A stretch of DNA of 64,000 nt from an uncultured Bacilli bacterium (GTDB lineage Bacteria > Bacillota_I > Bacilli_A > RF39 > UBA660), in the NCBI GenBank assembly GCA_944332675.1, contig CALVKJ010000001.1, positions 5,235 through 69,234 on the forward strand. Reading direction: 5' to 3'. Both the position numbers and the translations under genes were made by a program. Within the stretch, counting starts at the first letter, position 1. Each line of letters starts with the position of its first letter. Below the pieces are notes generated by a model, which worked only from the letters and a program-made list of their open reading frames with translations, was not told where the DNA came from and did no database searches. Shown one piece after another: positions 14,310-61,612 of this stretch.

Positions 14310-14402
14310 ATGAATAAAAAAGCGCAAAAGATTGCAGCTTGGATTATGTTACTTTTAATGATCGGTAGTGTTGTTGCAGGTATACTTGTTTACTTAATCT
14401 AG
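14310..14402 (+). CDS. small hydrophobic peptide (30 aa), single TM
   Basis: ATG at 14310 with SD AAGGAG at 14295-14300 (9-nt spacing); MNKKAQKIAAWIMLLLMIGSVVAGILVYLI; stop overlaps the 3' end of the convergent prepilin peptidase gene. Confidence 0.35.
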   Translation: MNKKAQKIAAWIMLLLMIGSVVAGILVYLI

Positions 14403-15205
14403 AAATTGAAAAGAAAATCTAAAAGCAACAAGAATTTATCATAATGATAAAAGACAATAAATAATGAACCCGCTAGGAAAGGACCATACGGAAATTCATT
14501 ATTTTTTTTAATTTCTAAAGATGCTAAAGCATAAGGTAAGGCAACAAAAGTTGATAGTATTATAGCAGTAAGACCTAACTTGAAATCAAGTATTAACCCC
14601 ATTATAAATGCTAGTTTTATATCTCCTCCCCCTAAAGCTTCTTTTTTAAATAAAAATTTACCCAGTTGGAAAAGCAAAAGCATTACACAAAATAAAGCGA
14701 TACCTGATGCAATACTTATTAAAGTGGGTTTAAAGCCATAGAAAATCAATTTTAAAATAATTACTAGAATGCCAGAAATAATTAATGGTGAATCTAAAAT
14801 AATCATATATTTAAAATCACTTACAAAGATAATTATAAGTAAAGAACTAATAATTAGGCCCACATAAAAATAATAACCAGCTGGTAAATAATAGTAAGTA
14901 AAGACAAATAAAAGGCCAGTAGCTATTTCAACAATGATATGTTCACCAGCAATTTTTTTATGACAAAATGTACATTTTCCGCTTTGGAAGACATAAGAAA
15001 AAATAGGTATTAAATTATACCATTTTAAGGGTTTGCCACAAGAATCACACTTGCTTCTGGAAAATAAGACATCTTCACCTTTAGGAAGTCTTGTGCCAAC
15101 AACTAAGTAAAAAGAACCCAAAATAGCTCCGATGAAAAATATTAATACTGCCATAAAATCCCCTACTCTATGAAATTTGGTTATACATACTAAACATTGG
15201 GCCAA
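14399..15205 (-). CDS. type IV prepilin peptidase (A24 family, PilD/ComC-like)
   Basis: N-terminal tetracysteine zinc ribbon CDSCGKP...CTFCHKK and a conserved GGGDIKL catalytic-region motif. Confidence 0.88.
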   Translation of the reverse strand: MAQCLVCITKFHRVGDFMAVLIFFIGAILGSFYLVVGTRLPKGEDVLFSRSKCDSCGKPLKWYNLIPIFSYVFQSGKCTFCHKKIAGEHIIVEIATGLLFVFTYYYLPAGYYFYVGLIISSLLIIIFVSDFKYMIILDSPLIISGILVIILKLIFYGFKPTLISIASGIALFCVMLLLFQLGKFLFKKEALGGGDIKLAFIMGLILDFKLGLTAIILSTFVALPYALASLEIKKNNEFPYGPFLAGSLFIVFYHYDKFLLLLDFLFNF

Positions 15206-16742
15206 TAACTGCTACAATAATTATACCAACAATAATTGCTAAGAAAGAAATCATAATTGGTTCGATAAATGATTTTAAGTTATTGATAATGTTTTTATGC
15301 AATAATTGATAATATTCACTTACCTTTTGCATCATATTAGCTAGATCTCCGGTTGATTCTCCAGTAACAATCATATAATAAGCAACATCTGGTATTGCCC
15401 AGTGATCTTTAAATGCTTCAGATATTTTTTCACCTTTGATAATATTGTTAATTGTACGATAAAGAATAGCACGATATACTTCATTATTAGTTATTCTACT
15501 TAAAATATCCATACTATCAGTAATAAAAACGTTATTACGTAAAAGCGATGCAAATGTTTTAGAAAATATAGTAAGTTCGTTATATATAATAATATTTTTA
15601 ATAACAGGAATGTGCATCAAAAATATTTGTAAAGTTGTTTTAAATGCTTTAACAGTTTTATAAAGTACAACAATAGTTATTATGGTTCCTAGAGTGATTC
15701 CAATAATTAAGAGATACTGACTTTGGAGGAAAGCACTAGCATCAACTACAATTTTAGTTATACCAGTTATTTCTGTACCATTTTGAGCATAAATATCAGT
15801 AAATTGCGGAACAATATAAGTTAAAATGAAAATGATAACACCAATTGCAAAAATGCTAATAATTGTAGGATAAGTCATAGCACTGATCATTTGCTTATGA
15901 TTTTCATTTATTTCAGTATAATAATTTGACATATCATCAAGAGTTTCTACTAAGGTACCACTTGCTTCAGCGGCTTTAATCATATTGATAAGAAGTGCAG
16001 GAAACATTGTTCCTTGTTTTTCTAGAGCACTTGAAAAAGATTCTCCTAGTGTTAGTTCATAGGAAATAGCTTTAAAAGCTGTAGTTCTTGCTTTACTACC
16101 TTTCATTTGCGTTGTTAGCACCTTTATAGATTCATTTAAAGTTAAACCAGCTTTAATATAAGTTGATAATTGAGTTAGCCAGAAAATTAGATCCTTAGTA
16201 GACATCTTTTTTCCTAAAAAACTTGAATCTTTATATACAAAATCAATAAATGGTGAAGTTTTAATACTATAAATATCATATCCTTCATTTATAAGATATG
16301 AATTAATATCTAACTTACTTAAACCATTCATAGTTCCAGTAATAATTCTTCCACTAGCATCTCTTACTTTATATAAATAAACGTGCGGAACTTTGCTTCT
16401 TGTTGCTCCAGCGTTTTGTAAGTCTAGCATTAATTCTTTTTTTTCTAATTCCAACTTTTCTAATGTTTTGGCACTATATTTATAAACTTTTTCTTTTTTA
16501 GGCTTTCTTTTCGTCATTTCATAGATTTTATCTTCTTCTTCCATTAGTTGTTGCTTAGTATGACGATAAGTTTTATCTACTTGGTAGCTAGCACCATTAT
16601 ATAAATTAACCCACAAATCAAAAAATGCTGCTTTAAAACCTACACCAGCATAAGCTAAAATGTTATACAAAACTACAAATGGGGTCTTTATTAACTCTAA
16701 AACATTATTTGATTTTGGAGCTTCATTTAATGTTTCTTGCAT
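15168..16742 (-). CDS. type II secretion / type IV pilus platform protein (GspF/PilC/ComGB family) with N-terminal extension
   Basis: Duplicated GspF-type domains (LTLGESFSSALEK..., TGESTGDLANMMQKVSEYY); an extra ~120-aa N-terminal region compared with typical PilC. Confidence 0.85.
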   Translation of the reverse strand: MQETLNEAPKSNNVLELIKTPFVVLYNILAYAGVGFKAAFFDLWVNLYNGASYQVDKTYRHTKQQLMEEEDKIYEMTKRKPKKEKVYKYSAKTLEKLELEKKELMLDLQNAGATRSKVPHVYLYKVRDASGRIITGTMNGLSKLDINSYLINEGYDIYSIKTSPFIDFVYKDSSFLGKKMSTKDLIFWLTQLSTYIKAGLTLNESIKVLTTQMKGSKARTTAFKAISYELTLGESFSSALEKQGTMFPALLINMIKAAEASGTLVETLDDMSNYYTEINENHKQMISAMTYPTIISIFAIGVIIFILTYIVPQFTDIYAQNGTEITGITKIVVDASAFLQSQYLLIIGITLGTIITIVVLYKTVKAFKTTLQIFLMHIPVIKNIIIYNELTIFSKTFASLLRNNVFITDSMDILSRITNNEVYRAILYRTINNIIKGEKISEAFKDHWAIPDVAYYMIVTGESTGDLANMMQKVSEYYQLLHKNIINNLKSFIEPIMISFLAIIVGIIIVAVIGPMFSMYNQIS

Positions 16743-16857: not shown

Positions 16858-17478
16858 CTAAATAACTATATTTTCTTTTAACCAATTTGTAAAATTAGCA
16901 ACATTTTCTATTTCAGTTATTTTGTGTTCAAGCATTTCGGCATAAGTTAAGTCATCTTTCCTATAAAAACTATTATCTATTGCTTTTAACACTTTATTTA
17001 TTTCATTCTTAAACTCTTCTTTTTTTTCATTATTATTACTTATATTTAGTGATAAAATAGTACTTAGATTTTTGAATAAAAATATATCTTCAGCTAATTC
17101 ATTTTTCAATATTTTTATGTTTTCATAACTTATTCTATTTTTATATCGATATTTTATTATATGATTGTGATACATTTGGCTATATTCTATTAAATTATAA
17201 TAATATATTTTAATAGCACAAACTAATCTATTTATAGTACTTTTATCATAGATATTTGTATCATTTTTTGTATTGCCACAAAGAATTCCTTCTTCTGCTG
17301 GTAACTCGATAATATCCAAATTCATATTTATAACTTCCAAGCTTTCATCATATAGTTTCCATAACTCCTTAGTTTCCTTTATATTTTCAGTATTTTTATA
17401 ATAATTAATAACTAGTATCAATAAAATCGCTATAATAATTATAGAAGATATACTTATAAAAATTAATTTCTTTTTCAT
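16858..17478 (-). CDS. signal-anchored protein of unknown function
   Basis: N-terminal TM anchor; in an operon upstream of the PilC-like gene. Confidence 0.45.
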   Translation of the reverse strand: MKKKLIFISISSIIIIAILLILVINYYKNTENIKETKELWKLYDESLEVINMNLDIIELPAEEGILCGNTKNDTNIYDKSTINRLVCAIKIYYYNLIEYSQMYHNHIIKYRYKNRISYENIKILKNELAEDIFLFKNLSTILSLNISNNNEKKEEFKNEINKVLKAIDNSFYRKDDLTYAEMLEHKITEIENVANFTNWLKENIVI

Positions 17479-17490
17479 ATTCTACTTAGA

Positions 17491-17970
17491 TTAAAATGTT
17501 TTTAAAAGTTCTACAACTTCTTCCGCTTGTAAAGGTTTATTTGTAAAGAATGCATATAAAATATTATCATATACAAAATATATACTTCTTGAAAAATCCA
17601 ATCTTTTATTTGGAGATGGTAGAAAAAATCCATATGTATTTATATTGCTTAGGTAAAATTCAGTTATTTCCGTGTCAATTCTTCTATTTTCCACTTCAAA
17701 ATTAGCATATTTATTTTTGGTTTCTTCACTTGCTTTTGATAATTCTTCGTTAAATTTATATTCATCTGTCGACCAACTTACTCCATTAGATATTTGATAT
17801 TCTCCGCTGTCAATTTCTGTTTCATACATCATTGTTAAGGCATTAGTGGTTAAAATATTGCTACTACTTTCATTTTTTAATATTATCTTATTCTTTAAAT
17901 TATTATTCGTATATAAACCAATAAAAGTAATTGCAATCATTATTAAAATGGCTAATATTATTTTCCTCAT
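17491..17970 (-). CDS. signal-anchored protein with a DUF4367-like C-terminal domain (unknown function)
   Basis: Probable start MRKII at 17970, preceded by SD GGAGG; the C-terminus FVYDNILYAFFTNKPLQAEEVVELL is shared with the protein at 62940-63671. Confidence 0.45.
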   Translation of the reverse strand: MRKIILAILIMIAITFIGLYTNNNLKNKIILKNESSSNILTTNALTMMYETEIDSGEYQISNGVSWSTDEYKFNEELSKASEETKNKYANFEVENRRIDTEITEFYLSNINTYGFFLPSPNKRLDFSRSIYFVYDNILYAFFTNKPLQAEEVVELLKTF

Positions 17971-18107
17971 AATGGCCTCCATACTATAATGAAATATTAG
18001 CACAAGCAAAAATTAAAAGATAGATTTAATATGTTACTATTGTAAAACTAGATATTTTAATATCAAATTAGTATCATATTTAATAGTTAGCAAAGGAGCG
18101 AGCTTGC

Positions 18108-31613: not shown

Positions 31614-32495
31614 TTACATTAGTTTATATTCTTTAGCTAATATTCTGGAGTCGCTGCAATATTCCATTATAAATTCATTATTCTTCTTACATATGATAAT
31701 TCCTATAGTTTTATCTTGCGTTACTGTTTTTAAGTTCTTATCTATGTAATTCATATAAACTTCTATTTGACCAATGTGTTCCTTTTTTAATTCAGTTACT
31801 TTTAGTTCTACTACTACGTAACAATTAAACTTAATATTATAAAGAAGTATATCGATGAAATTATAAGTATTACCTATTTTTATTTTGTATTCGTTTTTAA
31901 CAAAAGTAAAGCCCTCACCCAATTCATCTAAAAAAGATGGAAGATCTTCAAGTATAACTTTTTGTAATGCTTTCTCGGAAATTATTTCTTTATTGGTATT
32001 ATTTTTAATAACAATAGGATTTTTAATAAAATCAGCTACTGTAGTCTCTTTTTCATCTATTAACTTTTCTTTAGTAATATCATCTAATCTTTCGTATTCT
32101 TTATTTTTAATTCGTTCACGAAGTTGTCTAACGGATAAATTATGTTCAATAATTAATTTAGTATAAAAATTTATTTTATTATCATCTTTTATTGTTATGA
32201 GAGTTCTATAATGACTCCACCTTAATTGGTCACACACCGTGTGACTTTTTGAAAAAATAAAAAATTGCCGCATTAATTTTAAATTGGTAGCAGTGTATCC
32301 TTTACCAAGTTCACTCGTCAATTTTTTAGAATATTCTTTTATAATACCTTCACCATAATGTTTACCGGCTTCACTTAACAGTTTACCAACATTATAATAA
32401 GTAGTTAAATCACTTTTATTTTTACTATAATCTTTTACTTTTTTAGTTATTTCATTATTTATTAATTCGTTTTTTATTTCTTTATAATAATTCAT
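31614..32495 (-). CDS. YhcG/DUF1016-family PD-(D/E)XK nuclease paralog C
   Basis: DUF1016_N-like region (GKGYTATNLKLMRQFF) and a C-terminal PD-(D/E)XK core (IDILLYN...VVVELKVTELKKEHIGQIEVYMNY); SD GGAGG upstream. Confidence 0.8.
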   Translation of the reverse strand: MNYYKEIKNELINNEITKKVKDYSKNKSDLTTYYNVGKLLSEAGKHYGEGIIKEYSKKLTSELGKGYTATNLKLMRQFFIFSKSHTVCDQLRWSHYRTLITIKDDNKINFYTKLIIEHNLSVRQLRERIKNKEYERLDDITKEKLIDEKETTVADFIKNPIVIKNNTNKEIISEKALQKVILEDLPSFLDELGEGFTFVKNEYKIKIGNTYNFIDILLYNIKFNCYVVVELKVTELKKEHIGQIEVYMNYIDKNLKTVTQDKTIGIIICKKNNEFIMEYCSDSRILAKEYKLM

Positions 32496-32502
32496 AAACC
32501 TC

Positions 32503-33393
32503 CTATACTAGTTTATATTCTTTAGCTAATATCCTAGAATCACTACAATATTCCATTATGAATTTGTTATCCTTTTTACATATGATAATTCCTATAGTTT
32601 TATCTTGAGTTATTGTTCTTAAGTTCTTATCTATGTAATTCATATATACCTCTATTTGACCAATATGTTCCTTTTTTAATTCTGTTACCTTTAGTTCTAC
32701 TACTACGTAACAATTAAACTTAATATTATAAAGAAGTATATCGATGAAATTATAAGTATTACCTATTTTTATTTTGTATTCACTGGCAATATAACTAAAT
32801 GAATCACCTAATTCCTTTAAAAATGAATCTAAATCTTCCAAAATAAGTCTGTGCAAAACTTTTTCAGAAATTATTTCTTTATTGGTATTATTTTTGATAA
32901 GTAAAGGATTTTTAATAAAATCCGTAACTGATGTAGAAGATTTAGTTATTAATTTGCTTTTTATAGAATCATCTAATCTTTCATATTCTTTACTTTTTAT
33001 TCGTTCTCGTAACTGTCTTACCGACAAATTTTGTTCAATGCCTATTCTTATATAATAATTAACTTCGTCAATATTATCTATAGATAACAATTCGCTATAA
33101 TGGCTCCAAGTCAATTGTGTCGACACTGTCGACACTTTTTCATTACTAAATAATAAAAAGAATTGTCTAAATCTAAATAAAGTTCTTGCAGTATATCTTA
33201 AACCTAGCTCAACAGTTAATCTTTTAGAATACTCTCTAATAATACCTTCACCATAATGTTTGCCAGCTTCACTTAACAGCTTACCAACATTGTAATATGT
33301 AGTTAGATCGCTTTTATTTTTACTATAATCTTTTACTCTTTTAGTTATTTCATTATTTATTAATTCATTTTTTATTTCTTTATAATAATTCAT
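32503..33393 (-). CDS. YhcG/DUF1016-family PD-(D/E)XK nuclease paralog B
   Basis: Same architecture; first ~55 aa and last ~110 aa near-identical to paralogs A and C, central region divergent. Confidence 0.8.
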   Translation of the reverse strand: MNYYKEIKNELINNEITKRVKDYSKNKSDLTTYYNVGKLLSEAGKHYGEGIIREYSKRLTVELGLRYTARTLFRFRQFFLLFSNEKVSTVSTQLTWSHYSELLSIDNIDEVNYYIRIGIEQNLSVRQLRERIKSKEYERLDDSIKSKLITKSSTSVTDFIKNPLLIKNNTNKEIISEKVLHRLILEDLDSFLKELGDSFSYIASEYKIKIGNTYNFIDILLYNIKFNCYVVVELKVTELKKEHIGQIEVYMNYIDKNLRTITQDKTIGIIICKKDNKFIMEYCSDSRILAKEYKLV

Positions 33394-33403
33394 AAACTTC
33401 TCC

Positions 33404-34288
33404 TTATACTAGCTTATATTCTTTAACTAATATTCTAGAATCACTACAATATTCCATTATGAATTTATTATTTCTTTTACATATAATAATTCCTATAGTT
33501 TTATCTTGAGTTATTGTTCTCAAGTTTTTATCTATGTAATTCATATAAACTTCTATTTGACCAATATGTTCTTTTTTTAATTCTGTTACTTTTAATTCAA
33601 CAATTACAAAACAATTATATTCATAATTATAAAGAAGCAGATCGATGTAATTATATGTATTACCTATTTTTATTTTGTATTCACTAGCAATATAACTAAA
33701 TGAATCACCTAATTCCTTTAAAAATGAATCTAAATCTTCCAAAATAAGTCTGTGCAAAACTTTTTCAGAAATTATTTCTTTATTGGTATTATTTTTGATA
33801 AGTAAAGGATTTTTAATAAAATCAGCTACTGTAGTTTCTTTTTCATCTATTAACTTTTCTTTAGTAATATCATCTAATCTTTCATATTCTTTATTTTTAA
33901 TTCGTTCACGAAGTTGTCTAACGGATAAATTTTGTTCAATACTTATTTTTATATAATAATTAATTTCATTGATATCTTCAAACCAAATTATTGCACAGTA
34001 GTGAGTAAAAGTTAAAAGGTCGGTCATTGACTGACTTTTTGAAAAAATATTATAAAATCGTCTTATATATTTAAGCTGAGTAACAGAATATCCCTTTCCA
34101 AGTTCTTTAGTTAACTTTCTAGAATATTCTTTTATAATACCTTCACCATAATGTTTACCGGCTTCACTTAACAGCTTACCAACATTATAATAAGTAGTTA
34201 AATCGCTTTTATTTTTGCTATAATCTTTTACTCTTTTAGTTATTTCATTATTTATTAATTCATTTTTTATTTCCTTATAATAATTCAT
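33404..34288 (-). CDS. YhcG/DUF1016-family PD-(D/E)XK nuclease paralog A
   Basis: Same architecture; start lies 11 nt after the comEC stop, preceded by SD GGAGG (translational coupling). Confidence 0.8.
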   Translation of the reverse strand: MNYYKEIKNELINNEITKRVKDYSKNKSDLTTYYNVGKLLSEAGKHYGEGIIKEYSRKLTKELGKGYSVTQLKYIRRFYNIFSKSQSMTDLLTFTHYCAIIWFEDINEINYYIKISIEQNLSVRQLRERIKNKEYERLDDITKEKLIDEKETTVADFIKNPLLIKNNTNKEIISEKVLHRLILEDLDSFLKELGDSFSYIASEYKIKIGNTYNYIDLLLYNYEYNCFVIVELKVTELKKEHIGQIEVYMNYIDKNLRTITQDKTIGIIICKRNNKFIMEYCSDSRILVKEYKLV

Positions 34289-38162: not shown

Positions 38163-38975
38163 ATGAAAAAAAATTTAATCTATTTGACAATTCTTATACT
38201 GATTTTTCTAATATTTAAAAATTATTCTTTAGTTTTAGATAGTAGTATAAAAGCAGTTGAGCTTTGGTTATATAAAGTTTTTCCCTATCTTTTTATAATG
38301 ATTGTAATAAATGATACCTTAATTAACTTGGATTTTGAAAGATTATTTAAAAATAACAGTATCTATGCTTTAGTGGCGTCCCTTTTAAGTGGCAGTCCAA
38401 CATCTGCAGTAATTATCAGTAATTTATATAAACAAGGAAAAATGACTAAGGATACCGCCAACAAAACTTTACTTTTTACTTATTTTGCCAATCCTTTATT
38501 TTTATATACTATGTTAAATGCTATATTTAATTCGCAATTTATAGCTATTAAACTTATGCTTATTCATTATCTCAGTAATATAATTATTTATTTAATATAT
38601 CGCCGAGGTTTAACTAGTAAAAACATAAATTATAATAAAACAAAGCTAGATATTTCTAGCTCGATTAAAAAGGCTATGAATACAACTACTATGGTTTTAG
38701 GTTGTATAACATTTTATTTAGTTATTAGTGATATATTACATCTAAGTATTTTTTTAAGAGGAATATTAGAAATGACTCAAGGATTAAATAGTTTAATTGG
38801 TGAGTCTTTGCAATACAAAGAATTACTTGCTATAGGTTTTATCTCTTTTGGAGGATTTTCTATTCATACCCAAGTAAAGTGTATTTTAGATGAAACTGAT
38901 TTGGAATATAAATATTTTTTTAAGGGAAGAATTATGCAAACTTTAATAGCTTTATTGATTACAGCCTGTACCTAG
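38163..38975 (+). CDS. polytopic membrane protein (YlbJ/nucleoside-recognition-like?)
   Basis: ~8 TM helices; divergent from the ylbL-like gene as in Bacillus. Weak assignment. Confidence 0.4.
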   Translation: MKKNLIYLTILILIFLIFKNYSLVLDSSIKAVELWLYKVFPYLFIMIVINDTLINLDFERLFKNNSIYALVASLLSGSPTSAVIISNLYKQGKMTKDTANKTLLFTYFANPLFLYTMLNAIFNSQFIAIKLMLIHYLSNIIIYLIYRRGLTSKNINYNKTKLDISSSIKKAMNTTTMVLGCITFYLVISDILHLSIFLRGILEMTQGLNSLIGESLQYKELLAIGFISFGGFSIHTQVKCILDETDLEYKYFFKGRIMQTLIALLITACT

Positions 38976-39515
38976 ACAAGTTAAAGGTGTGGTAAAATCA
39001 CTTACATTGCCTAAGTAATTTATCATTATATCATCTAAAGTATTATTATTTGCAGCATCATTTTCTTCATTTATAGTATGAACTTCGATATCAATTATAA
39101 GAGTAAATATTTTATCATCGGCACTATAATAAACATTAGCTCTATTTACATAAACACTACTTTCAGCTATTTTCCATCTTCTGACATTTTCACCAGTGGA
39201 ATCAATATATGAAAATAAGGTGCTTGTAGTACTTAGATAAGAACTCGTATTATCAGAAAAGTTAAATGTAATGTTTAAAGTTTCAGAATCGCTATTATCA
39301 ACTATACTAGTTAAAACTTTATTATTTAAGTCATTGCCGATCATTCTTAAGATTTCAGCCCTATTTATTTGATTATCACGCGCATAAGTAGTGTTAGTTT
39401 CTAGATTATTTAAATCGATTAATAGTCTAATCATAAATATTAAAACTACCGATATTAAAGCTATACTAATTATTACTTCGGCTAAAGATGTTCCTTTTTT
39501 ATTTAGCATAATCAT
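38952..39515 (-). CDS. type IV pilin-like (pseudopilin) protein
   Basis: Class III signal: KKG|TSLAE with Glu at +5, followed by a hydrophobic helix VIISIALISVVLIFMI. Confidence 0.65.
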   Translation of the reverse strand: MIMLNKKGTSLAEVIISIALISVVLIFMIRLLIDLNNLETNTTYARDNQINRAEILRMIGNDLNNKVLTSIVDNSDSETLNITFNFSDNTSSYLSTTSTLFSYIDSTGENVRRWKIAESSVYVNRANVYYSADDKIFTLIIDIEVHTINEENDAANNNTLDDIMINYLGNVSDFTTPLTCLGTGCNQ

Positions 39516-40408
39516 TCCTCTATTCTATATGGTGAAGCTTGACTACCTTCACCACTTGCCAAATGTACGGTACTATTTAAATAAAATACTGGTCTAATTT
39601 GAAATGTATTTTCTACGGTACTGGAAGACAATGTTCCATTATTATTAATATAAAATGCAGTATTATGAGTAGAATTATCTCGCGAAATTGTCCAGTAACT
39701 TGTGCCATTATTTAACCAATTATCAGTCCCAGTAGCAGTTGATCCATAATTATCTTGAATTGTTCCATAACCATAATCGGATATATATAATAAAGCAATT
39801 TTGTTATTTACCCAAATATTTTTATTTTGATTATTTCCTAATTCATTTTCATAAATATTTTTTAATGTATCTGTTGCTAATGAATTAGTAATACCATTAG
39901 TATAAAAATTAGTTGTGGCAATTAAAGATGCATAAGTACTTAAGGTATTTAAATAGTTAGTATTTAAATAATTATAAATCGTCGTATTTATAAAATAGTT
40001 GGTTTCATCGGTATCAAAAGCTAAAGTAGCTACACTACTATTCGATATAAGTTTAACTTTGCCATCAATTACCCCGATTATGCGATATAAATTATTACTA
40101 GGACAAGGAGTAACAATAGTACCAAAACATACATAATTATTTGGATTTGCTCCAGTATAACGGTAAGAATTATCCCCTGCTCCATTTACTAAATCGGCAT
40201 TGTGGTGAACAAGGCCAAGTTCTTCAGCGTGATTAATTAAATAGCGGGCAAAAGTTGTATCTGATATATTCTCTTTAATTTCAGCTTTCATACTATTTAA
40301 AAGAAGACGATTGCTAACCAAATTATTGACAATAAAAAGCATAAGTAACAAAAATACAACAAAAAATGAGTAAACAACAGAAATTGATATAAATCCTTTT
40401 TTATTCAT
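39512..40408 (-). CDS. type IV pilin-like protein with a C-terminal domain shared with the 508-aa secreted protein
   Basis: Probable start MNKKGFISISVV at 40408 with SD AGGTGA; KKG|F prepilin-like N-terminus lacking Glu+5; C-terminal YRYTGANPNNYVCFG...CP..NLYRIIGVIDGKVKLI...WTISR...RPVFYL...SPY domain. Confidence 0.55.
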   Translation of the reverse strand: MNKKGFISISVVYSFFVVFLLLMLFIVNNLVSNRLLLNSMKAEIKENISDTTFARYLINHAEELGLVHHNADLVNGAGDNSYRYTGANPNNYVCFGTIVTPCPSNNLYRIIGVIDGKVKLISNSSVATLAFDTDETNYFINTTIYNYLNTNYLNTLSTYASLIATTNFYTNGITNSLATDTLKNIYENELGNNQNKNIWVNNKIALLYISDYGYGTIQDNYGSTATGTDNWLNNGTSYWTISRDNSTHNTAFYINNNGTLSSSTVENTFQIRPVFYLNSTVHLASGEGSQASPYRIEE

Positions 40409-40416
40409 ACAATCAC

Positions 40417-41013
40417 CTAAATTCCTAAAGATACATAATAAAGGTTGCATCCTTCATCAGTACCAGGAACACACCTACTAAGTCTGCCATCAACCGTATA
40501 TTCAGAATATTCTACAATTAAATAATAATTATAAGTAGTATCATTTAAAGTTTGAATATAACTATTAATAGCATAATTTAAATTAGAAGTTGATGCTTCA
40601 CATTTGGTATCATCTTTCAAATTAGTACAATTACTAAGCATATCAGAGTCCATTATTAACATTTGATTAACGCTAAAATTAGTAAAAATATTTTCCATAG
40701 TAGCTTTCATATTATTAGCGATTTGCTCACTATTAAACATCCCATCAAATTCTGGGCCGATAGTGATTATATAACTATTTTCAAAAGCATAACTTTTTAT
40801 ATTTTCTATATTAGTATTATTTTCTAGAAACTCCCTTATATAATTTGTCCGATATATATAAGCAGTATCATCATAATAAAGTCGTGTTTCTTCCCTATTG
40901 ATGATACTACTATATGTTCCATACAAATAAAGTAGTGAGGTTGACAATACAACAACAGTTATAATAGTTTCGATAATAGCAAATCCCTGTTTATTTTTTT
41001 TCATTCTCATCAT
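40417..41013 (-). CDS. type IV pilin / pseudopilin (ComGC-like)
   Basis: Canonical prepilin motif KQG|FAIIE (Gly-1, Phe+1, Glu+5) followed by a hydrophobic helix; 198 aa. Confidence 0.75.
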   Translation of the reverse strand: MMRMKKNKQGFAIIETIITVVVLSTSLLYLYGTYSSIINREETRLYYDDTAYIYRTNYIREFLENNTNIENIKSYAFENSYIITIGPEFDGMFNSEQIANNMKATMENIFTNFSVNQMLIMDSDMLSNCTNLKDDTKCEASTSNLNYAINSYIQTLNDTTYNYYLIVEYSEYTVDGRLSRCVPGTDEGCNLYYVSLGI

Positions 41014-41109: not shown

Positions 41110-41295
41110 ATGTATCCTTGTAATCGTGGTCCTGGTGGAGGTTTAACAATTTTAATGCTATTTATATTATCTATTTTGATATTTTATCAACTGATAATTA
41201 CATTAATTCTTCCTTTTAGATGGAATATATTTGTGCTTATTTTGGAAATGTTTTTATTCTTTTTCTTTTTATGTCGTATTATTTGGCCGCATTAA
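41110..41295 (+). CDS. small hydrophobic protein (61 aa), doubtful
   Basis: Two predicted TM helices, weak RBS AGGTGG with short spacing; lies in the promoter region of the minus-strand pilin genes. Confidence 0.2.
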   Translation: MYPCNRGPGGGLTILMLFILSILIFYQLIITLILPFRWNIFVLILEMFLFFFFLCRIIWPH

Positions 41296-41307: not shown

Positions 41308-42204
41308 TCAACTATTTTCTTCTTCCGTATTATAATATGGTCTTATTAAATCTTCTGTTTTAAATACATAATCAATTACTTGATTATTATAACGGCATTG
41401 GGATATTTCACTGTCCCCTTTTTTTAATTCTGGAGGTAAAGTTATTAAAATGAATAGTAACTTTTTTTCATATTCGAGTAAGGGAAATTTATACATATAT
41501 CTTTCTAAGCATTCAGCAAAATTGATATTTAAATATTCTTTTTTATAAAGTTTAACTAAATCAATAATAGGTGTATCTATTAAATAGTCATCCCAACTAA
41601 TTAATACTTCTCTATTTCCTTTTAAATAGTGATCGAGTGCTAAATTGTTATGGACAACAGATACTCTAGTTTTAGTTTCTCCTTTAATTAATTCATACCA
41701 ATTGTCTAATTCTTTATCACAAAAATCTAAGGCAGCGTTGAGTTTAGAGAAATTTCTTAAAAACTGATATGTTGATGGAGATTGATAAACTTCACTAAAG
41801 CCCATTTCAAAAAGAGTATCGTAGTAATTTTTTAAATAGCTTATATTACTTTTAATATCTTCATAAATTGCTTTATAGGTATCTTCACTTACTTCTTTAA
41901 AATAGCTAGTTTTATTATGTAAACTAGCTATTAAATCGATTATATCATCACACATTTGTTCTTTAGGCATACGTATGCTTTCGACATATTCAAAGACATT
42001 GACATCTCGTCTGGAAGCATCAACGAGTTTGGGAAAATGATCAAACCCCCGACTTATCAAATAATTATATAATTCATTAATATCTTTTCTCTTGGGTTTA
42101 ATTATAAAATCTCCACTGGTAGTTTCTAAAAGTGTTGCTTTGCCCTTTAGAGTATAACGATATGGTTTATAGATGGCTTTTAATACTTCTAAGCTTCTAC
42201 TCAT
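41308..42204 (-). CDS. CotS/aminoglycoside-phosphotransferase-like kinase family protein
   Basis: APH/CotS-like catalytic loop HNNLALDHYL and a downstream ISWDD (DxD-like) motif; 298 aa. Confidence 0.55.
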   Translation of the reverse strand: MSRSLEVLKAIYKPYRYTLKGKATLLETTSGDFIIKPKRKDINELYNYLISRGFDHFPKLVDASRRDVNVFEYVESIRMPKEQMCDDIIDLIASLHNKTSYFKEVSEDTYKAIYEDIKSNISYLKNYYDTLFEMGFSEVYQSPSTYQFLRNFSKLNAALDFCDKELDNWYELIKGETKTRVSVVHNNLALDHYLKGNREVLISWDDYLIDTPIIDLVKLYKKEYLNINFAECLERYMYKFPLLEYEKKLLFILITLPPELKKGDSEISQCRYNNQVIDYVFKTEDLIRPYYNTEEENS

Positions 42205-42946
42205 TTATTTCAGGTATAATTAATTTATCTCCGATAGCAATTGTACTTAAATCGTTATATTCTCCAAGTATGCTAGTAGTTGTATTATATTTAGCACAAA
42301 CTGATTCTAAAGTATCTACTTCTTGCATTACGTGAATATGATAAGTTACAAAACTATCTTCTTTACTAATACTATCTATAACGGTATTTTGTTCTTGTTC
42401 TGTTAATTCGTTATCACGAACTTCAGTTGGTTTATCTATTACTTCAGTATCCACAGTTTCTTCCTCACTTTCTTTAGTTTCTTCAAAATCATTTGGTTCA
42501 GTAGGTTCTGTTTCTTCAAGCGTTTCGCTTTCTTTTCTTTCATCTATCTCAGAATCAAGACTGTCTAGAATATCATCTAAAGAAACTGATTCCTCAGCAA
42601 TTGGTTCAAATACGTCTTCTTCTCTTGCCTCGATTGCATTAATGCTATATTCAATATTTACTTTTAAGGTATCGTTGTCGATGATTTCATAAGTGAAGTC
42701 TTCAATGGCAAAATCAACAGATTCTGTATCAATTCTCGTAGTTAAGTTTACAGAAAACGGTAAAACTTGTTCGAAATGTTCTTTATTAACACTTACTTCA
42801 TGGGATTTATAATCTCCAGAAACGATGAAATTTCCTAATATTTCATTATCATTAACGGTATATTCATTTTCTAAAGAAATACTCACTATTTCAGAAATAT
42901 TAGTGTTAAACTTAATATTCTTAGTAAACGGTATTATACAATTCAT
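42197..42946 (-). CDS. SpoVID-like protein (DUF3794-type N-domain plus C-terminal LysM)
   Basis: N-terminus ISEIVSISLENEYTVNDNEILGNFIVSGDY resembles the SpoVID/DUF3794 N-domain; acidic middle; C-terminal LysM (LESVCAKYNTTTSILGEYNDL...GDKLIIP). Confidence 0.55.
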   Translation of the reverse strand: MNCIIPFTKNIKFNTNISEIVSISLENEYTVNDNEILGNFIVSGDYKSHEVSVNKEHFEQVLPFSVNLTTRIDTESVDFAIEDFTYEIIDNDTLKVNIEYSINAIEAREEDVFEPIAEESVSLDDILDSLDSEIDERKESETLEETEPTEPNDFEETKESEEETVDTEVIDKPTEVRDNELTEQEQNTVIDSISKEDSFVTYHIHVMQEVDTLESVCAKYNTTTSILGEYNDLSTIAIGDKLIIPEINE

Positions 42947-52018: not shown

Positions 52019-53536
52019 GTGATACAGATGTTTCGAGATTTTGATTACGAAAATAAACCTGTTGTTGACATTGTAAATGAAATGATCATCGATGCCATTA
52101 ATAAAAGAGCATCCGACATTCACTTCGATCCAACAGAAAATGAACTTAATGTCCGCATTAGAATCGATGGGGAGCTTTTAGAATATGCAAAAGTACCTAA
52201 TTTCGTTAAAAAGAATCTCTTGACTCGTATTAAAATCATATCTGGTATGAATATTACTGAAACAAGACTTCCTCAAGATGGAGCAATAAAAAATTTAACG
52301 GATGTCAACAGTTTAGACCTCCGTGTTTCTAGCTTACCAATCGTCGATGGGGAAAAAATAGTTATTCGTATCCTTAATTATACAATGTCAACCGCTGGGT
52401 TAGAAAACCTTGGTTTATCTGATAAAAACTTAGATAAAATAAATAAATTAATTAAATCTCCGAACGGTATTATTCTAGTTGCTGGGGCTACTGGATCTGG
52501 TAAGTCTACTACTGTTTATGCAATGCTTCAAATACTTAATACTGTATCAAGAAACATTATTACTGTTGAAGACCCAGTCGAAATGAAGATTGCGGGAATT
52601 AACCAAGTTCAAGTTATGGCTGATATTGGTTTAACTTTCGGTAATACCTTAAGAAGTATATTGCGGCAAGACCCAGATGTTATAATGATCGGAGAAATTC
52701 GTGATGATGAAACGGCTCGTATTGCTGTTCGTGCATCTATTACCGGACACTTAGTACTTTCGACAATTCACACCAATAACTCTTTAAATACAATTGAAAG
52801 ATTACTAGATATGGAAGTTGAAAGATACTTACTCGGTAGTGCCCTAACAGGTATAATTTCTCAAAGACTTGTTAAAAGATTATGTCCAAAATGCCGTACT
52901 AGTAGACCAACTACTCCATATGAAAAAATATTATTTGAAAAAGTATTACACCAACAAGTAGATACAATTTATGCTCCTCAAGGTTGTAGTGAATGTATCA
53001 ATGGTTATACTGGCCGAGTTGCTCTACACGAAGTATTAATTATTACGCAAGAAATTCGTGATGCTATTACTAATAATATTCGTAAAAATGAATTAAGACA
53101 CTTAGTATACGACCGAAGTGATGTAACTAGCTTACTTAAAGATGGATTAGAAAAAGTTGTTGCTGGACTTACAAGTATTGATGAAATACTAAGAGTAATT
53201 GATGTCGATGATGATATTGGTGAAGACGAAGAAGATTTAAAAGCAGCATTTATGGGTAAAGTGCAAAATACTAATACAGAAACTATTGAAGAGGTACCTG
53301 CTGCTACTCAAACAGTTGACTCATTAGATGCTACAATTAATCCTAATTTAGCTATCGCAGAAGAACCAATGACACAAAATTTAAATGTTTCTCCTTTAAC
53401 ACAACAACCAATAGATAGCTTAAATGCAGAACCAACTATAACTTATGAACAACCTCAAACAAATATTGACAATCCAGTTATTACTCCACTACCACCAGAA
53501 CAAGCCAATGCCAGCTTAAATATTGAAACATTATAA
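52019..53536 (+). CDS. type II/IV secretion ATPase (GspE/PilB/ComGA family) with C-terminal low-complexity tail
   Basis: Walker A AGATGSGKST, Asp and His boxes, tetracysteine CPKC...CSEC; lacks the N-terminal GspE_N domain; C-terminal ~110 aa are T/N/P/Q/E-rich. Confidence 0.85.
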   Translation: MIQMFRDFDYENKPVVDIVNEMIIDAINKRASDIHFDPTENELNVRIRIDGELLEYAKVPNFVKKNLLTRIKIISGMNITETRLPQDGAIKNLTDVNSLDLRVSSLPIVDGEKIVIRILNYTMSTAGLENLGLSDKNLDKINKLIKSPNGIILVAGATGSGKSTTVYAMLQILNTVSRNIITVEDPVEMKIAGINQVQVMADIGLTFGNTLRSILRQDPDVIMIGEIRDDETARIAVRASITGHLVLSTIHTNNSLNTIERLLDMEVERYLLGSALTGIISQRLVKRLCPKCRTSRPTTPYEKILFEKVLHQQVDTIYAPQGCSECINGYTGRVALHEVLIITQEIRDAITNNIRKNELRHLVYDRSDVTSLLKDGLEKVVAGLTSIDEILRVIDVDDDIGEDEEDLKAAFMGKVQNTNTETIEEVPAATQTVDSLDATINPNLAIAEEPMTQNLNVSPLTQQPIDSLNAEPTITYEQPQTNIDNPVITPLPPEQANASLNIETL

Positions 53537-53631: not shown

Positions 53632-55158
53632 TCACACTACCAAAGTATATGGATCAGTACTTGTTCCTGTACCTTCAGAAAATTCTACACTAGATTCTAG
53701 ATAGAAGGACGGCCTGACCGCATACACAAGGTACACGTTGCCGAGGTAGTTCACGTAGCCTGTGTCGCTCACATTGAACGCAAGGAACGTATTGTCCGAA
53801 TAGCGGGAAATAGTCCATTCACCTGCTCCAATATGCATCCAGTTATTATTCCTATTTGTATCATTATCATAATCACTTAAATCTGTATTCCAGTTTTCTG
53901 GGCTTGCTGCATATCCATAATCACTTACATACATTAATCCTATTTTTGCTTCGTATGTTGTATTTGCTTTATTTGCTCCTACTTCATAATTATATGCTGT
54001 TTGCACTGGACTATTTAAATACATTGAACTTCCTCCTCCTACTTGCCATTCTGTTGTCGCTATCTTGTCGCTCCATTCACTTCCTATTGTTGTTAGATAT
54101 GTTCCGTTTAATACGCTTGTATTTAATGTACTACTACTCCATACATTACTTTGATTACTGCTTGATCCGCTCCAATAGTAATATGGGATACTGCTTAAGC
54201 TTCCTTTATAGTATGTTGAACTTGGAGTTCTACTACCTGCCGGGGCTGTTCCTAATACACTTTCTCCGGCATAATCGCTTTTTATCAATTTTACTTGTCC
54301 ATCAAACACTCCTATTATTCTATATAGGTTATCTGCTGGGCATGTTTCTTCGTCTGAACCAAAACATATGTAATTATTTGGATTTGCTCCACTATATCTG
54401 TAGCTATTATCTCCTGCTTCTAATGTTCCATATGTTCCTGTTCCATCATGGTAATATATTCCATTTTCTCCATCTGTTGTATATAAACTAGCTATATATT
54501 CTGCTGCATTTCCTAAATCTGTACTCATTGATTCTTCTTGAATTATCAAATTTGCACTAAATGTCTTTCCTGTATTTGCATTTTGATCCGCATCTAAGTT
54601 TGCAAATATTACTTCTACTGTCCATTCTTGAGTTACTGTTCCAGTTGATACTATTTCATAATTATTTGCTATTGTAATTACTCCTGTTGATGTTGTTATA
54701 TCAAATCCTGTTACTCCACCACTTGTCTTTCTTGTTAATCCTGTTATACTTGTTACTTCTGCTCCTGTTGGATCTGTTACTTTTAATAACAATTCTGCTT
54801 GATTATCACTTGTTGTATATTCAAAATTATTACTTTCTATATTTAAAAATATATAATAATTTCTCGTAGCATTATTTGTTGCATTATTTGCTGTTAATAT
54901 GGCTCTTGCAAAAGTTTCACCACTTTTATTTCCAGCACCTTGACCAAAGTCTTCTTGGTTTGCTGTTAAACTTATTGCACTTCCTGTTTGAAATGATAAG
55001 TTATCTGTTGTTGCAGTACCAGCATTAACACTAATATTTCCTGTAGTTCCTCCTTGAGCAGCAAAATATGCATATGTTGCTCCAACTACTGCTGTTATTA
55101 ATGTTACTACGCCAATTATAGATAACACTAATGCTTTCTTCTGATTTTGTTTTTCCAT
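53632..55158 (-). CDS. large secreted T/G/S/N-rich protein with a SipW-cognate-like signal peptide
   Basis: N-terminus KKALVLSIIGVVTLITAVVGATYAYFAAQ resembles the TasA/camelysin-type signal (GGTxAxF); C-terminal ~150 aa are homologous to the pilin-like gene at 39512-40408; SD AAGGAAGG. Confidence 0.6.
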   Translation of the reverse strand: MEKQNQKKALVLSIIGVVTLITAVVGATYAYFAAQGGTTGNISVNAGTATTDNLSFQTGSAISLTANQEDFGQGAGNKSGETFARAILTANNATNNATRNYYIFLNIESNNFEYTTSDNQAELLLKVTDPTGAEVTSITGLTRKTSGGVTGFDITTSTGVITIANNYEIVSTGTVTQEWTVEVIFANLDADQNANTGKTFSANLIIQEESMSTDLGNAAEYIASLYTTDGENGIYYHDGTGTYGTLEAGDNSYRYSGANPNNYICFGSDEETCPADNLYRIIGVFDGQVKLIKSDYAGESVLGTAPAGSRTPSSTYYKGSLSSIPYYYWSGSSSNQSNVWSSSTLNTSVLNGTYLTTIGSEWSDKIATTEWQVGGGSSMYLNSPVQTAYNYEVGANKANTTYEAKIGLMYVSDYGYAASPENWNTDLSDYDNDTNRNNNWMHIGAGEWTISRYSDNTFLAFNVSDTGYVNYLGNVYLVYAVRPSFYLESSVEFSEGTGTSTDPYTLVV

Positions 55159-55249: not shown

Positions 55250-55287
55250 ATACTACCAAAAAAAAAAAAAAAAAAAAAAAAAATCAA
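55250..55287 (-). promoter_or_regulatory. putative promoter whose -35/-10 spacer is a homopolymeric tract
   Basis: On the minus strand TTGATT (rc of 55282-55287), then T26 plus gg, then an extended -10 TGgTAGTAT (rc of 55250-55258); current spacer ~26 nt. Confidence 0.45.
55258..55283. repeat. uninterrupted poly(A)26 / poly(T)26 homopolymeric tract
   Basis: 26 consecutive A on the plus strand, upstream of the minus-strand surface-protein gene. Confidence 0.95.
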
Positions 55288-58742: not shown

Positions 58743-60290
58743 TTAAATTCCTTTTTTTCTAATTAAGGTATCATATGTATCTAAAACTTTAGGATCTTCA
58801 ATTAGAAAACGATATTTTACATAAATATGTTTAAAGTTATATAATAAATTTTCTAAATCTTTATTATTAGCATCATATTCTGCTATAAGGTTAGATATGT
58901 CTTTATCTAATTCTTCTAAAACTTTATCACAATCTTTTCTTATCTTTAATCTGCGCATAATTTCTGATGCATCTATTAAAGAAAGATCAGTAACTCCCGC
59001 AAATAAGAAAGACATTTTGACAATTGCCCAAGGCACAAATAGCATTAATAAAACTATCAATAAACTATATCTATACGCCAAATTATCAGAATCTACTATA
59101 TAATTATTAGAGTTTTGAATTAAACGAATGACTTCAGTTATTTGTTGCTCATAAGTTTCTTTCGCTGATAAATTAGTGCTATTTTCATTGGTAATATTAA
59201 CATTATTTAAATCAGCTAAATTAAGAGCTACATATTCTTCTAACTTTTCATAATCGATATCACTTACATCTGCAGATACAACTGTTCTTGTGTAATTGTT
59301 AGTCATAAATTCTTCCCAAGGGGTGTAAGAAACTACCAATATTTTTTCCCCAGCAGGAATTTTTTCTTGATAATCAGCAGTAGTTCTAGTTAGACCATCA
59401 ACCGTAGAATAAGTTTCTTTAGTAGTATGATAAAGTTTAGTAGAAGAAAGTGCTTTTACTCCTTTATTAGCGCCATAAATAAGGCCACTTAATAACACTA
59501 CTGTTGCAGTTGCACTAGCAATTAATCTAGTTACTTTAGCATCATTTCGTCTTTTATTAGTAGCTTTTTTTTCGGATTGCTTATTATCAATAGCTGCTGC
59601 TAATTCTTTTTTCTTAGCTATTTTTGCACAAATTTTTTCGTATTGTTCATGTAGTTTCTTAGAAACATCATTAATAAAATTATCATCACTTTCTATAACC
59701 CCCACAAGTGAAGATGGCTTATTTTTTAGATCTTGTAAATTAATATTAATCGCACTTCTAAAAATTTCACTTAAGCCAGATTCTTCAATAAATTCTAGTA
59801 ATACACTATTACCGTGGAATAACAATTCTTTTTGGATAATTATTACATAAAATGGTAATATCTTTTTTAATATGATTTCACAGTTAGGATCAGCAAAATC
59901 ACAACAAGCTAATAAATCGATAATACTTCTTATGGCATTATTAGCATATACTGCAATATTTTCTTCAAGTATAGATCCTTCTTCAGCTGCTTCTTTATAT
60001 ATTTGGACATTTTCATATAATTTTAAAAGCTTATTATATTTATTTAACTCAAGACTTAATGCTTGAAGACTTTTAAAACCTCTAGAATGTGCCGAATCTA
60101 AATAAGCAGCGGTGAAAGCATTTTTGGGTTTATTTTGAATTTCTTCTACCTCTTTAGTACAAGATGCAACAATTTCATTTAAAGTTTGTTGATATTTAGA
60201 TACATCAAGACCTAAGTCTTCTAAATTACTTATTAATCTTTCTAATTCTATCTTTTTACTTTTATAGTTAAACGCAAAACCATTAGTCAT
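58743..60290 (-). CDS. hypothetical coiled-coil/membrane protein (515 aa)
   Basis: Long ORF, two predicted TM segments in the C-terminal half, no known motifs. Confidence 0.5.
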   Translation of the reverse strand: MTNGFAFNYKSKKIELERLISNLEDLGLDVSKYQQTLNEIVASCTKEVEEIQNKPKNAFTAAYLDSAHSRGFKSLQALSLELNKYNKLLKLYENVQIYKEAAEEGSILEENIAVYANNAIRSIIDLLACCDFADPNCEIILKKILPFYVIIIQKELLFHGNSVLLEFIEESGLSEIFRSAININLQDLKNKPSSLVGVIESDDNFINDVSKKLHEQYEKICAKIAKKKELAAAIDNKQSEKKATNKRRNDAKVTRLIASATATVVLLSGLIYGANKGVKALSSTKLYHTTKETYSTVDGLTRTTADYQEKIPAGEKILVVSYTPWEEFMTNNYTRTVVSADVSDIDYEKLEEYVALNLADLNNVNITNENSTNLSAKETYEQQITEVIRLIQNSNNYIVDSDNLAYRYSLLIVLLMLFVPWAIVKMSFLFAGVTDLSLIDASEIMRRLKIRKDCDKVLEELDKDISNLIAEYDANNKDLENLLYNFKHIYVKYRFLIEDPKVLDTYDTLIRKKGI

Positions 60291-60652: not shown

Positions 60653-61612
60653 ATGAAAAGAACAAGATTTTTTGAAAGATGTAGCCATAGCTACCAATAT
60701 TTATCGGATATGTGTAAATCGGTAACAGAAGAATACACAGATATTAAATTTAGTGTTGTTCAATGTGATCCTAATTTTAGGGAGCCAATTAAAATTATCA
60801 ATTTAGTTAAAGATATAAGTGATTTTTACAATGAAAATTGGTTGGGTAATGCTGATTACATACATATACCTGATGCTAGAAAAGTTTTAGATAATTATTT
60901 AAAGTATCCAATTATTATGGCATATCAACAATATCCAGATGGGTCGATCGATATTTTGGGTATTGCCACTTTAAAATACTATCAAAATACGGATGATTTT
61001 GTAAATCCTTACTACCCTATTCCTAATAAAAGATTTTTTGAAGTAACGGGTATATTAACTAAACAAAATAGCCTTGTTAAAAATATTGGCAAGAGAATAT
61101 ACGAAATATTAATTGAAGCTTTGGAAAAATATCAAGAAGTTCTTCCTGATTTTGATGTTATATTTGTAGCTGATTGTAGAAATTATATGAGCATAAATGG
61201 AGCACGTGGTGGTGCTAAGTACTTAAGAGAAGAACGAGGTAAAAACGCATATGGCAAAATTGTAGGATTTTATACTGTTAGGGAAAATGGGGTGTTAACT
61301 GAGGCTCCAACATTTGTAGCTAAATTTGATTTTAATAGCTCCCCTCTTACAAATACTATCGAATTTTCTTATCAAGAAGATGCCGATTTATTTGAGAGTA
61401 TGCTACAAATAATCACCAGTAAATTAGCTAGTTATGATATTGCTCCAGAAGCCATTAATATGGATGAATGCGGAGAAGTAGCTTTTTATAAATTAGGTGA
61501 TGATCGTATAAATTTAGATGATATAACTATACTACCTAATGGAACAGAAAAAGGAAATGATCGTATTCCTTGGCCAATTACACGAAAAAGAGTTAGGGGT
61601 GGTATTAAATGA
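60653..61612 (+). CDS. hypothetical protein with a GNAT-like acyl-CoA binding motif
   Basis: VKNIGKRIYEILIEAL resembles GNAT motif A (V/I-x4-R-G-x-G); the stop overlaps the start of the dipeptidase gene. Confidence 0.45.
   Translation: MKRTRFFERCSHSYQYLSDMCKSVTEEYTDIKFSVVQCDPNFREPIKIINLVKDISDFYNENWLGNADYIHIPDARKVLDNYLKYPIIMAYQQYPDGSIDILGIATLKYYQNTDDFVNPYYPIPNKRFFEVTGILTKQNSLVKNIGKRIYEILIEALEKYQEVLPDFDVIFVADCRNYMSINGARGGAKYLREERGKNAYGKIVGFYTVRENGVLTEAPTFVAKFDFNSSPLTNTIEFSYQEDADLFESMLQIITSKLASYDIAPEAINMDECGEVAFYKLGDDRINLDDITILPNGTEKGNDRIPWPITRKRVRGGIK

Follow-up and report, generated by a model that had tools for sequence, protein, structure and literature searches.

How does one and the same extracellular module come to stand on two proteins that leave the cell with different N-terminal signals? 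The question is raised by a stretch of 64,000 nucleotides (contig CALVKJ010000001.1, positions 5,235 to 69,234, of assembly GCA_944332675.1), referred to below as the window, from an uncultured, low-GC (~28%), reduced-genome lineage of gut Bacilli. One of the genes concerned (39512..40408, minus strand) encodes a protein of 298 amino acids (aa), pilin2, whose N-terminus resembles that of a type IV pilin. The other (53632..55158, minus strand) encodes a 508-aa exported protein whose N-terminal signal recalls that of TasA and camelysin. The original prediction, made from the sequence alone, held that both end in the same putative binding or adhesion domain of ~150 aa, and that this domain is delivered by two routes, a type IV pilus and a SipW-type fibre or secreted protein. 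The explanation that we favour, and consider probable on balance, is that modules of the family DUF6273 make up a repertoire of lectin-like adhesins on pilin and non-pilin carriers, a carrier/effector system of the kind described for modular pilins.

The module and its fold

The relationship between the two C-terminal regions was borne out. A BLASTP comparison of the 298-aa and 508-aa proteins gave 131 bits and an E value of 4e-39 under composition-adjusted statistics; of the 277 aligned columns, 33% are identical and 52% positive. Both reading frames are as the original prediction had them, and all the peptides that it cited were present. The proposed length of ~150 aa turned out to be too short. 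The aligned region runs from residue 63 to 296 of pilin2 and from residue 231 to 506 of the 508-aa protein, which amounts to ~235 aa and ~275 aa, respectively, the 508-aa copy containing an extra insertion of ~45 aa. A short helix before the core widens the module to ~residues 50-298 of pilin2 (~250 aa; 39515..40261, minus strand, with the BLAST-aligned core at 39521-40222) and to ~residues 216-508 of the 508-aa protein (~290 aa; 53635..54513, minus strand, with the core at 53641-54468). These were the only two copies that tblastn found in the window. At the DNA level, the likeness of the two genes found by self-blastn is a single 61-nucleotide stretch with 85% identity (40121-40181 versus 54358-54418). 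This stretch encodes YRYxGANPNNYxCFG, the most conserved peptide of the module, which lies in its N-terminal extension, outside the Pfam DUF6273 model, and is followed by a conserved Cys...Cys pair.

The domain had at first not been recognised, but its family is a known one, Pfam DUF6273 (PF19789), with a C-type-lectin-like fold. The Pfam model matched residues 132-278 of pilin2 over profile positions 26-171 of 172, and the score of 30 bits exceeds its gathering threshold, 23.5. The 508-aa protein alone gave no match to this model at E<=1; long relatives of it do match, one of them (in L020) with 32.7 bits. Here and below, L-numbers such as L005 or L012 denote loci from related genomes, 81 loci and ~1 Mb together. 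AlphaFold2 models were built on alignments of 48 sequences for the 298-aa protein and 49 for the 508-aa protein, and reached predicted local distance difference test scores of 90.8 and 84.4. When the models were compared with the PDB by Foldseek, 9QA6 was the single significant match for both, in each case through its N-terminal domain (E 8.3e-8 for the 298-aa protein and 4.2e-6 for the 508-aa protein, over 282-313 columns). Classical C-type lectin-like domains (CTLDs) gave partial structural matches at E>=0.19. A sequence profile of the pilin family reached no solved structure among PDB sequences, 9QA6 included.

9QA6 is the IgA peptidase of Thomasclavelia ramosa. Its N-terminal domain is a C-type-lectin-like core decorated to double its size, lacks the long loop of CTLDs, and is dispensable for IgA cleavage in vitro, with no known function (PMC12237041); the name DUF6273 is given to it in PMC12402451. 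Among predicted viral structures, 16 matched the 298-aa module at E<=1e-3, most of them 'DUF6273 domain-containing' phage proteins and one labelled 'Receptor Binding Protein'. DUF6273 domains of gut phages are targets of diversity-generating retroelements (DGRs) and have been interpreted as receptor-binding modules (PMC10743442; bioRxiv 10.1101/2024.10.15.618418). With these relatives (the N-terminal domain of 9QA6, phage DGR targets, tentaclins and Mtd-like receptor-binding proteins) the present module shares the Pfam family, the best structural match, a size about twice that of a CTLD, and an extracellular setting. It differs from them in three respects. First, no DGR accompanies it: a DGR template repeat is absent from the window, where self-blastn of the module DNA found only the paralogue, and no reverse transcriptase domain was present among the window's open reading frames (ORFs) scanned with Pfam. 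Second, an N-terminal extension of ~45 aa (DNSYRYxGxNPNNYVCFG...CP) and a C-terminal strand (G-x-G-T...P-Y-x-I) lie outside the Pfam model. Third, it is fused to pilins. The modules are acidic and rich in aromatic residues (pI 4.2-4.9; 12-15% F/W/Y). This DUF6273-type, C-type-lectin-like module probably binds a ligand.

A minor pilin without Glu5 as carrier

The predicted start of the pilin2 gene at nucleotide 40408 (MNKKGF...) is right, as an in-frame ATG further upstream, at 40450, is not kept in the homologues, which begin M(N/K)KKGF. Pilin2 thus starts with MNKKG|FISISVVYSFFVVFLLLMLFIV, in which a short, basic leader with Gly as its last residue gives way to a hydrophobic alpha1N. In the AlphaFold2 model a helix spans residues 9-47 and the globular module follows directly, with no pilin beta-sheet head, so that the protein consists of a leader, an alpha1 helix and the DUF6273 module. 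Seven residues (G5, F6, S8, F15, F16, L20 and R34) are invariant in 48 pilin2 homologues, and G5 and F6 also among 118 homologues of the carrier. Position 5 of the mature protein is Ser (F-I-S-I-S), not Glu, and is S or T across the family. The lack of Glu5 is a hallmark of filament-capping type IV pilins, that is, GspK-type subunits and PilA of Streptococcus sanguinis (PMC9934059), and the pilus tip is therefore where pilin2 would be expected. Pfam N_methyl (PF07963 / IPR012902) gave no match to the 298-aa protein at E<=1 and none to the 118 carriers at E<=1e-3, and in NCBIfam neither a sequence nor a profile match linked the protein to ComGG, GspK or PilX. Because N_methyl is silent and the model has no beta-sheet head, the incorporation of pilin2 into a filament rests on its context.

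This context is that of a pilus, and together with the class III-like KKG|F leader and the alpha1 helix it upholds the pilin-like nature first proposed for the 298-aa protein. The gene sits between two genes for pilins with Glu5, at tight or overlapping spacing. Pilin1 (40417..41013, minus strand; KQG|FAIIE), encoded by the first gene of the operon, is a canonical minor pilin that matched N_methyl with E 0.0089 and ComGF with E 0.0095, both sub-threshold. Pilin3 (38952..39515, minus strand; KKG|TSLAE; N_methyl E 0.029), whose start codon overlaps the stop codon of pilin2, is another. The order pilin1-pilin2-pilin3 is kept in 15 loci of related metagenome-assembled genomes (MAGs), with pilin1 syntenic in at least 12. 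In the wider gene order, the LysM protein, the YsxE-like protein and a tiny, oppositely oriented ORF come before the three pilins, and the YlbJ-like protein, the SepM/Lon-like protein, comEA and comEC come after them. Elsewhere in the window are genes for a prepilin peptidase of the PilD/ComC type (14399..15205, minus strand; Pfam A24_N_bact E 3e-28 and Peptidase_A24 E 1.5e-12), a platform protein of the PilC/ComGB type (15168..16742, minus strand; T2SSF E 1.5e-49, in two stretches) and a PilB/GspE/ComGA-like assembly ATPase (52019..53536, plus strand; T2SSE E 1e-123), the last convergent with the 508-aa gene. The ATPase scored 474 bits with the NCBIfam model for GspE, 455 with that for PilB and 269 with that for ComGA, all under the cut-offs.

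In such an operon, the prepilin peptidase would cut pilin2 at G|F, and the protein, whose carrier part is essentially the class III leader and alpha1 with the module in place of the usual pilin head, would join the two canonical minor pilins that flank it. By analogy with other subunits that lack Glu5, pilin2 most likely caps the filament and displays the module at the pilus tip. The design corresponds to that of a modular pilin as defined previously (PMC8179133): a pilin moiety is combined with a domain that also occurs on non-pilin proteins with at least two other types of N-terminus, in phage proteins and in the IgA peptidase.

Several further observations concern the pilus genes and their surroundings. 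The PilB/GspE-like ATPase is without a GSPII_E_N domain, and its residues ~395-505 form a tail of ~110 aa rich in P, Q, N and T with no family match. No gene for a major pilin lies in the window itself. In related loci, major-pilin-like genes of 138-155 aa (MNKKGFTLVELLAV...) stand singly between housekeeping genes, in the arrangement engB-pilin-der (L014, L015, L041, L050, L059 and L067) or ruvA-pilin (L009, L013, L029 and L054). Eight of these ten loci have a module gene within 0.7-3.5 kb, and the other two, L009 and L013, have the minor-pilin operon nearby instead. Between the ysxE-like gene and pilin1, on the opposite strand, is a 61-aa ORF (41110-41295, plus strand; MYPCNRGPGGGLTILMLFILSILIF...) whose position and sequence are kept across most of the 15 loci with this synteny. 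Its product matches no Pfam family and is Gly-rich and then hydrophobic, resembling small sporulation membrane peptides. The operon is surrounded by sporulation-type genes, encoding a YlbJ-like protein (38163-38975, plus strand) and the YsxE-like and LysM proteins (41308-42204 and 42197-42946, both minus strand); their matches are far under the equivalog cut-offs, and the lineage is labelled 'Tenericutes' in some records. Three tandem paralogues of the YhcG/DUF1016 PDDEXK nuclease (31614-34288, minus strand) lie between holA and comEC, and their copy number varies among related loci, from 1 to 3 as far as seen, some loci being cut at their ends. Four sizeable ORFs elsewhere in the window (9204-10760, 10846-11667 and 58743-60290, minus strand, and 60653-61612, plus strand) have an N-terminal transmembrane segment or no family match, and one of them, of 518 aa, contains a K-rich tract. 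A prophage origin was considered for the pilin2 and 508-aa genes and rejected, because both lie within conserved chromosomal synteny.

Signal-bearing and other carriers

The 508-aa protein is composed of a signal or anchor segment (residues 1-32; 55063..55158, minus strand), a beta-sandwich N-domain (residues ~50-210; 54529..55011, minus strand) and the module. Its N-terminus has a basic stretch and then a hydrophobic stretch that closes in GATYAYF, and the motif G-x-T-[YF]-[AS]-[YF]-[FLM] is kept in 49 homologues. The residues that this motif would put at -3 and -1 are small, as is usual where signal peptidases cut, and the protein is probably cleaved after T-[YF]-[AS]. In the AlphaFold2 model, residues 3-36 are helical, 32-50 make up a linker of low confidence, and 53-207 contain the beta strands. 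The N-domain had no sequence match in Pfam, NCBIfam or the PDB, apart from a weak one to TIGR04088 in homologues. Its fold gave weak matches (E 5e-3 to 4e-2) to immunoglobulin-like adhesins and to the donor-strand pilins FimA, PapK and CupB6. The protein would be exported by the Sec pathway by way of its N-terminal signal, and the N-domain would act as a stalk, or carrier, on which the module is presented.

A homopolymer of 26 T (55258..55283, minus strand; A26 on the plus strand) lies 99 nucleotides upstream of the start codon of the 508-aa gene. On one side it has the terminator hairpin of the NUDIX gene, which lies upstream, and on the other, directly 3' of it, TGGTAGTAT, an extended -10-like sequence of the 508-aa gene. 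It is the sole homopolymer of at least 12 nucleotides in the window. In contigs that encode an identical 508-aa protein, the tract was 16, 19, 26, 28 or 65 nucleotides long, and several contigs end there. Among 74 family genes in related loci, four had a tract of at least 12 nucleotides (T18-T20) nearby, against none among 674 genes outside the family (Fisher P 9e-5). The tract is likely to be a hypermutable promoter element, and would probably switch at least some members of the family on and off.

The two genes of the window belong to a very large set. Clusters related to the pilin-like protein number 4505, and those related to the 508-aa protein at least 7998; nearly all of the genome records retrieved are MAGs of uncultured bacteria of the gut, labelled 'Bacilli', 'Tenericutes' or Candidatus Onthocola. 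In the 81 loci, 102 module ORFs were found: 33 of the xTYAYF class, 15 of the pilin2 type, 2-3 pilins with Glu5, and ~50 others, many of which have a plain transmembrane anchor and a 'MMYETEAGSGEY...CENG...DKCYVYFD' domain of ~75 aa. The idea of one module on two routes thus holds insofar as different export signals precede a homologous module, but the carriers are of at least four kinds, not two. Individual MAGs contain at least eight paralogues, and fibronectin type III (FN3) spacers and tandem modules are common in the family. In L012 (8833-10890) the module is joined to pilin3, in a protein that also has two FN3 domains and, counted from its likely start, is 675 aa long; in L013 (6510-7988; 492 aa) it is joined to pilin1. 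The effector therefore moves among all three tip pilins. The pilin2 carrier is itself widespread. Run against 1.84 billion representatives, a profile of its residues 1-62 retrieved 894 clusters at E<=1e-3, and 42 of 118 clusters sampled had one to three modules, the other 76 having other or short heads (116-482 aa).

Alternative readings and the meaning of the repertoire

According to the explanation that we favour, the DUF6273 module is an interchangeable effector that has been grafted onto different carriers in this lineage. Pilin2 would be one such carrier, and the 508-aa protein another, one of many paralogues of which some have FN3 spacers and some are membrane-anchored. The adhesins would probably bind glycans or proteins of the host, of the diet or of other microbes. 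Several points weigh against this explanation. DUF6273 is without a demonstrated biochemical function, and the IgA peptidase can cleave in vitro without its N-terminal domain (PMC12237041). Pilin2 escapes Pfam N_methyl and is modelled without the pilin head. If cleaved at xTYA|YF, the 508-aa protein would have no recognisable cell-wall or membrane anchor, which leaves its retention on the cell unexplained. Finally, homopolymer lengths are error-prone in short-read assemblies, and the variation of the poly-T tract is therefore provisional pending long reads.

A different possibility, which we regard as unlikely, is that the non-pilin module proteins are tied to the type IV filament, either by docking at its tip in the manner of PilC/PilY1, or by pilus-dependent secretion followed by binding to a tip pilin, as CofJ binds to CofB. 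There are precedents, as effector modules are common to modular pilins and PilY1 (PMC8179133) and PilY1 docks on PilK by a beta-strand (PMC13533445). The neighbourhood of the genes is consistent with such a tie. In L005 and L008 the gene immediately upstream of pilin1 is of the xTYAYF class, in L060 pilC-pilD has a family gene immediately upstream, and in nine further loci family genes are found 0.4-3.5 kb from major-pilin-like genes. In the window, the position seen in L060 is occupied by a 172-aa ORF (17491-18009, minus strand), which has the class-d 'NALTMMYETE..GEY' N-domain of a third class of module proteins but not the lectin-like module. The 508-aa gene is convergent with pilB, an adjacency that is kept in the same-species contigs L082, L084 and L085 only and was not seen in more distant loci. 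Overall, a type IV pilus gene lies within a few kb in 10 of 65 module-selected loci, against a chance expectation of ~2-3 by a rough estimate. Six of these ten loci, however, share one inherited synteny (ffh...CTLD...engB-pilin-der) and are not independent events, so the enrichment is suggestive rather than proven; moreover, most paralogues stand among unrelated housekeeping genes. A search for upstream motifs in common, as a possible sign of co-regulation, gave a 10-mer, GTAGTATGAG, that precedes both the 508-aa gene and pilC but is not significantly enriched (6 occurrences versus 2.75 expected, with at least 6 in 4 of 100 shuffles). The likeness to PilC/PilY1 and CofB-CofJ (PMC13533445, PMC6048534) lies in non-pilin proteins that share pilin effectors or bind a tip pilin and whose genes cluster with those of pilins. 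Unlike PilY1, the present proteins have no beta-propeller, and their association with pilus genes is genomic and partial. Beside the 172-aa ORF, a 206-aa transmembrane protein with no family match is encoded (16858-17478, minus strand).

A bolder version would make the pilus the display platform for the whole lectin-like repertoire. Modules would be built into minor pilins or supplied by xTYAYF-type and membrane-anchored paralogues that dock on the filament or are exported through it, and homopolymer phase variation would choose the module. We give this version only a slim chance. If true, monoderms would gain a class of PilY1-like tip adhesins, counterparts of PilC/PilY1 or CofJ, and the SipW-like signal motif would be tied to the biology of type IV filaments.

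The SipW-type fibre of the original prediction leads to a third alternative. Here the 508-aa protein would be a subunit like TasA or camelysin: a SipW-type peptidase would cleave it, donor-strand exchange would polymerise it, and the resulting fibres would carry the module. Part of this stood up, as the N-terminus (KK...hydrophobic...G-x-T-[YW]-A-x-F) is in register with the TasA signal peptide, GATYAYF aligning with GGTWAAF. The most recurrent NCBIfam match among the N-domains was TIGR04088, found in 3 of 12 homologues with a best E value of 0.0012. The would-be mature N-terminus, residues 32-50, is disordered in the model, the fold of the N-domain is weakly like the donor-strand-complemented pilins named above, and a cleaved protein without an anchor would need assembly to remain on the cell. 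The rest was not supported. When the N-domain family was aligned by hhalign with a TasA family of 30 sequences (its query 99% identical to an annotated TasA), the similarity ended with the signal peptide, over 28 columns, at a probability of 8% and P 0.004. The TIGR04088 matches are weak, with none for the window protein at E<=10, and PF12389 matched none of the 12 N-domains even at E<=10, so that the mature domain is not detectably TasA-like. A regular-expression search for the SipW signature (S26B, SGSMxP-type) found none in the window and the ~1 Mb of related loci, and neither a TapA partner nor an operon like tapA-sipW-tasA was seen there. The only signal peptidase seen was a conventional S26A enzyme, in L011, and the T-x-A/S site would also suit an enzyme of this ordinary type. 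Furthermore, the paralogues stand one by one among housekeeping genes, the FN3 spacers and tandem modules are features that monomeric stalk adhesins typically have, and the aligned TasA sequences, unlike the 508-aa protein, have no large C-terminal lectin-like module. Because only the signal peptide aligns, TIGR04088 is weak, PF12389 is silent and no S26B signature was found in the window and the ~1 Mb of loci, the 'SipW signal' stays a resemblance at the level of a motif, and a TasA-like fibre is improbable.

A role of the module on the pilin as DNA receptor, in a pilus of the competence (Com) type, is far less probable. In its favour are the synteny of the operon with comEA, comEC and holA and the weak likeness of pilin1 to ComGF. 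Nevertheless, pilus DNA receptors that are known rely on electropositive patches (PMC12153270), whereas the module is acidic, as is each of the three minor pilins (pI 4.2-4.9), and the same module occurs on dozens of non-pilin surface proteins per clade; for these two reasons the role was rejected. The module has the fold found in lectin-like domains and in the domains by which phages bind receptors. Nor is the Com pilus set matched, as the pilus genes are dispersed over three sites of the window without a comGA-GG organisation, there are three minor pilins and not four, the ComGF match is sub-threshold and the ATPase reached 269 bits against a ComGA cut-off of 300. The adjacency to comEA/comEC is the sole Com-like feature. 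As for a compositional or chance similarity of two proteins rich in N, S, T and Y from a genome of ~28% GC, this has next to no probability and was ruled out, because the E value of 4e-39 holds under composition-based statistics, both models have the same best structural match, and invariant motifs are common to thousands of homologues.

The carrier/effector reading, to which we return, is close to what is known of PilA-PilB-PilC in S. sanguinis (PMC8179133, PMC9934059). In that monoderm, too, three minor pilins are encoded in one operon, one of them lacks Glu5, and bulky, adhesive modules (vWA; a concanavalin A-like lectin) on short pilin moieties are predicted at the tip; as in the present lineage, the effectors also occur on non-pilin carriers. 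In contrast to S. sanguinis, here the subunit without Glu5 is itself modular, its pilin moiety is apparently reduced to alpha1, and the module moves, in related genomes, among the three minor pilins and has multiplied greatly on carriers that are not pilins. The GspK/PilX 'K' subunits and ComGG (PMC9934059; PMC12153270) are likewise large or atypical minor pilins without Glu5, encoded with others and capping the filament. In pilin2, however, the extra domain follows alpha1 instead of being inserted in the pilin beta-sheet, and the minor pilins are three, not four. A DUF6273/CTLD effector is not named among the architectures described in PMC8179133, and since N_methyl is blind to this carrier, a survey based on that signature (IPR012902) may well miss it. 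The attachment of this module to pilins is new; it extends the known design of modular pilins and is not a new kind of system.

Modular pilins explain how it is that simple filaments gain a wide range of functions, and to their effectors DUF6273/CTLD is to be added, which is known elsewhere from a gut IgA peptidase and from the receptor-binding proteins of phages. The carrier is invisible to the Pfam model of N-terminal methylation, yet it comprises 894 sequence clusters. Within one uncultured gut lineage, a single module is exchanged among three tip pilins and several non-pilin carriers, which points to a large, probably phase-variable repertoire of adhesins in organisms without a known surface biology, and gives DUF6273 an extracellular binding role that can be tested.

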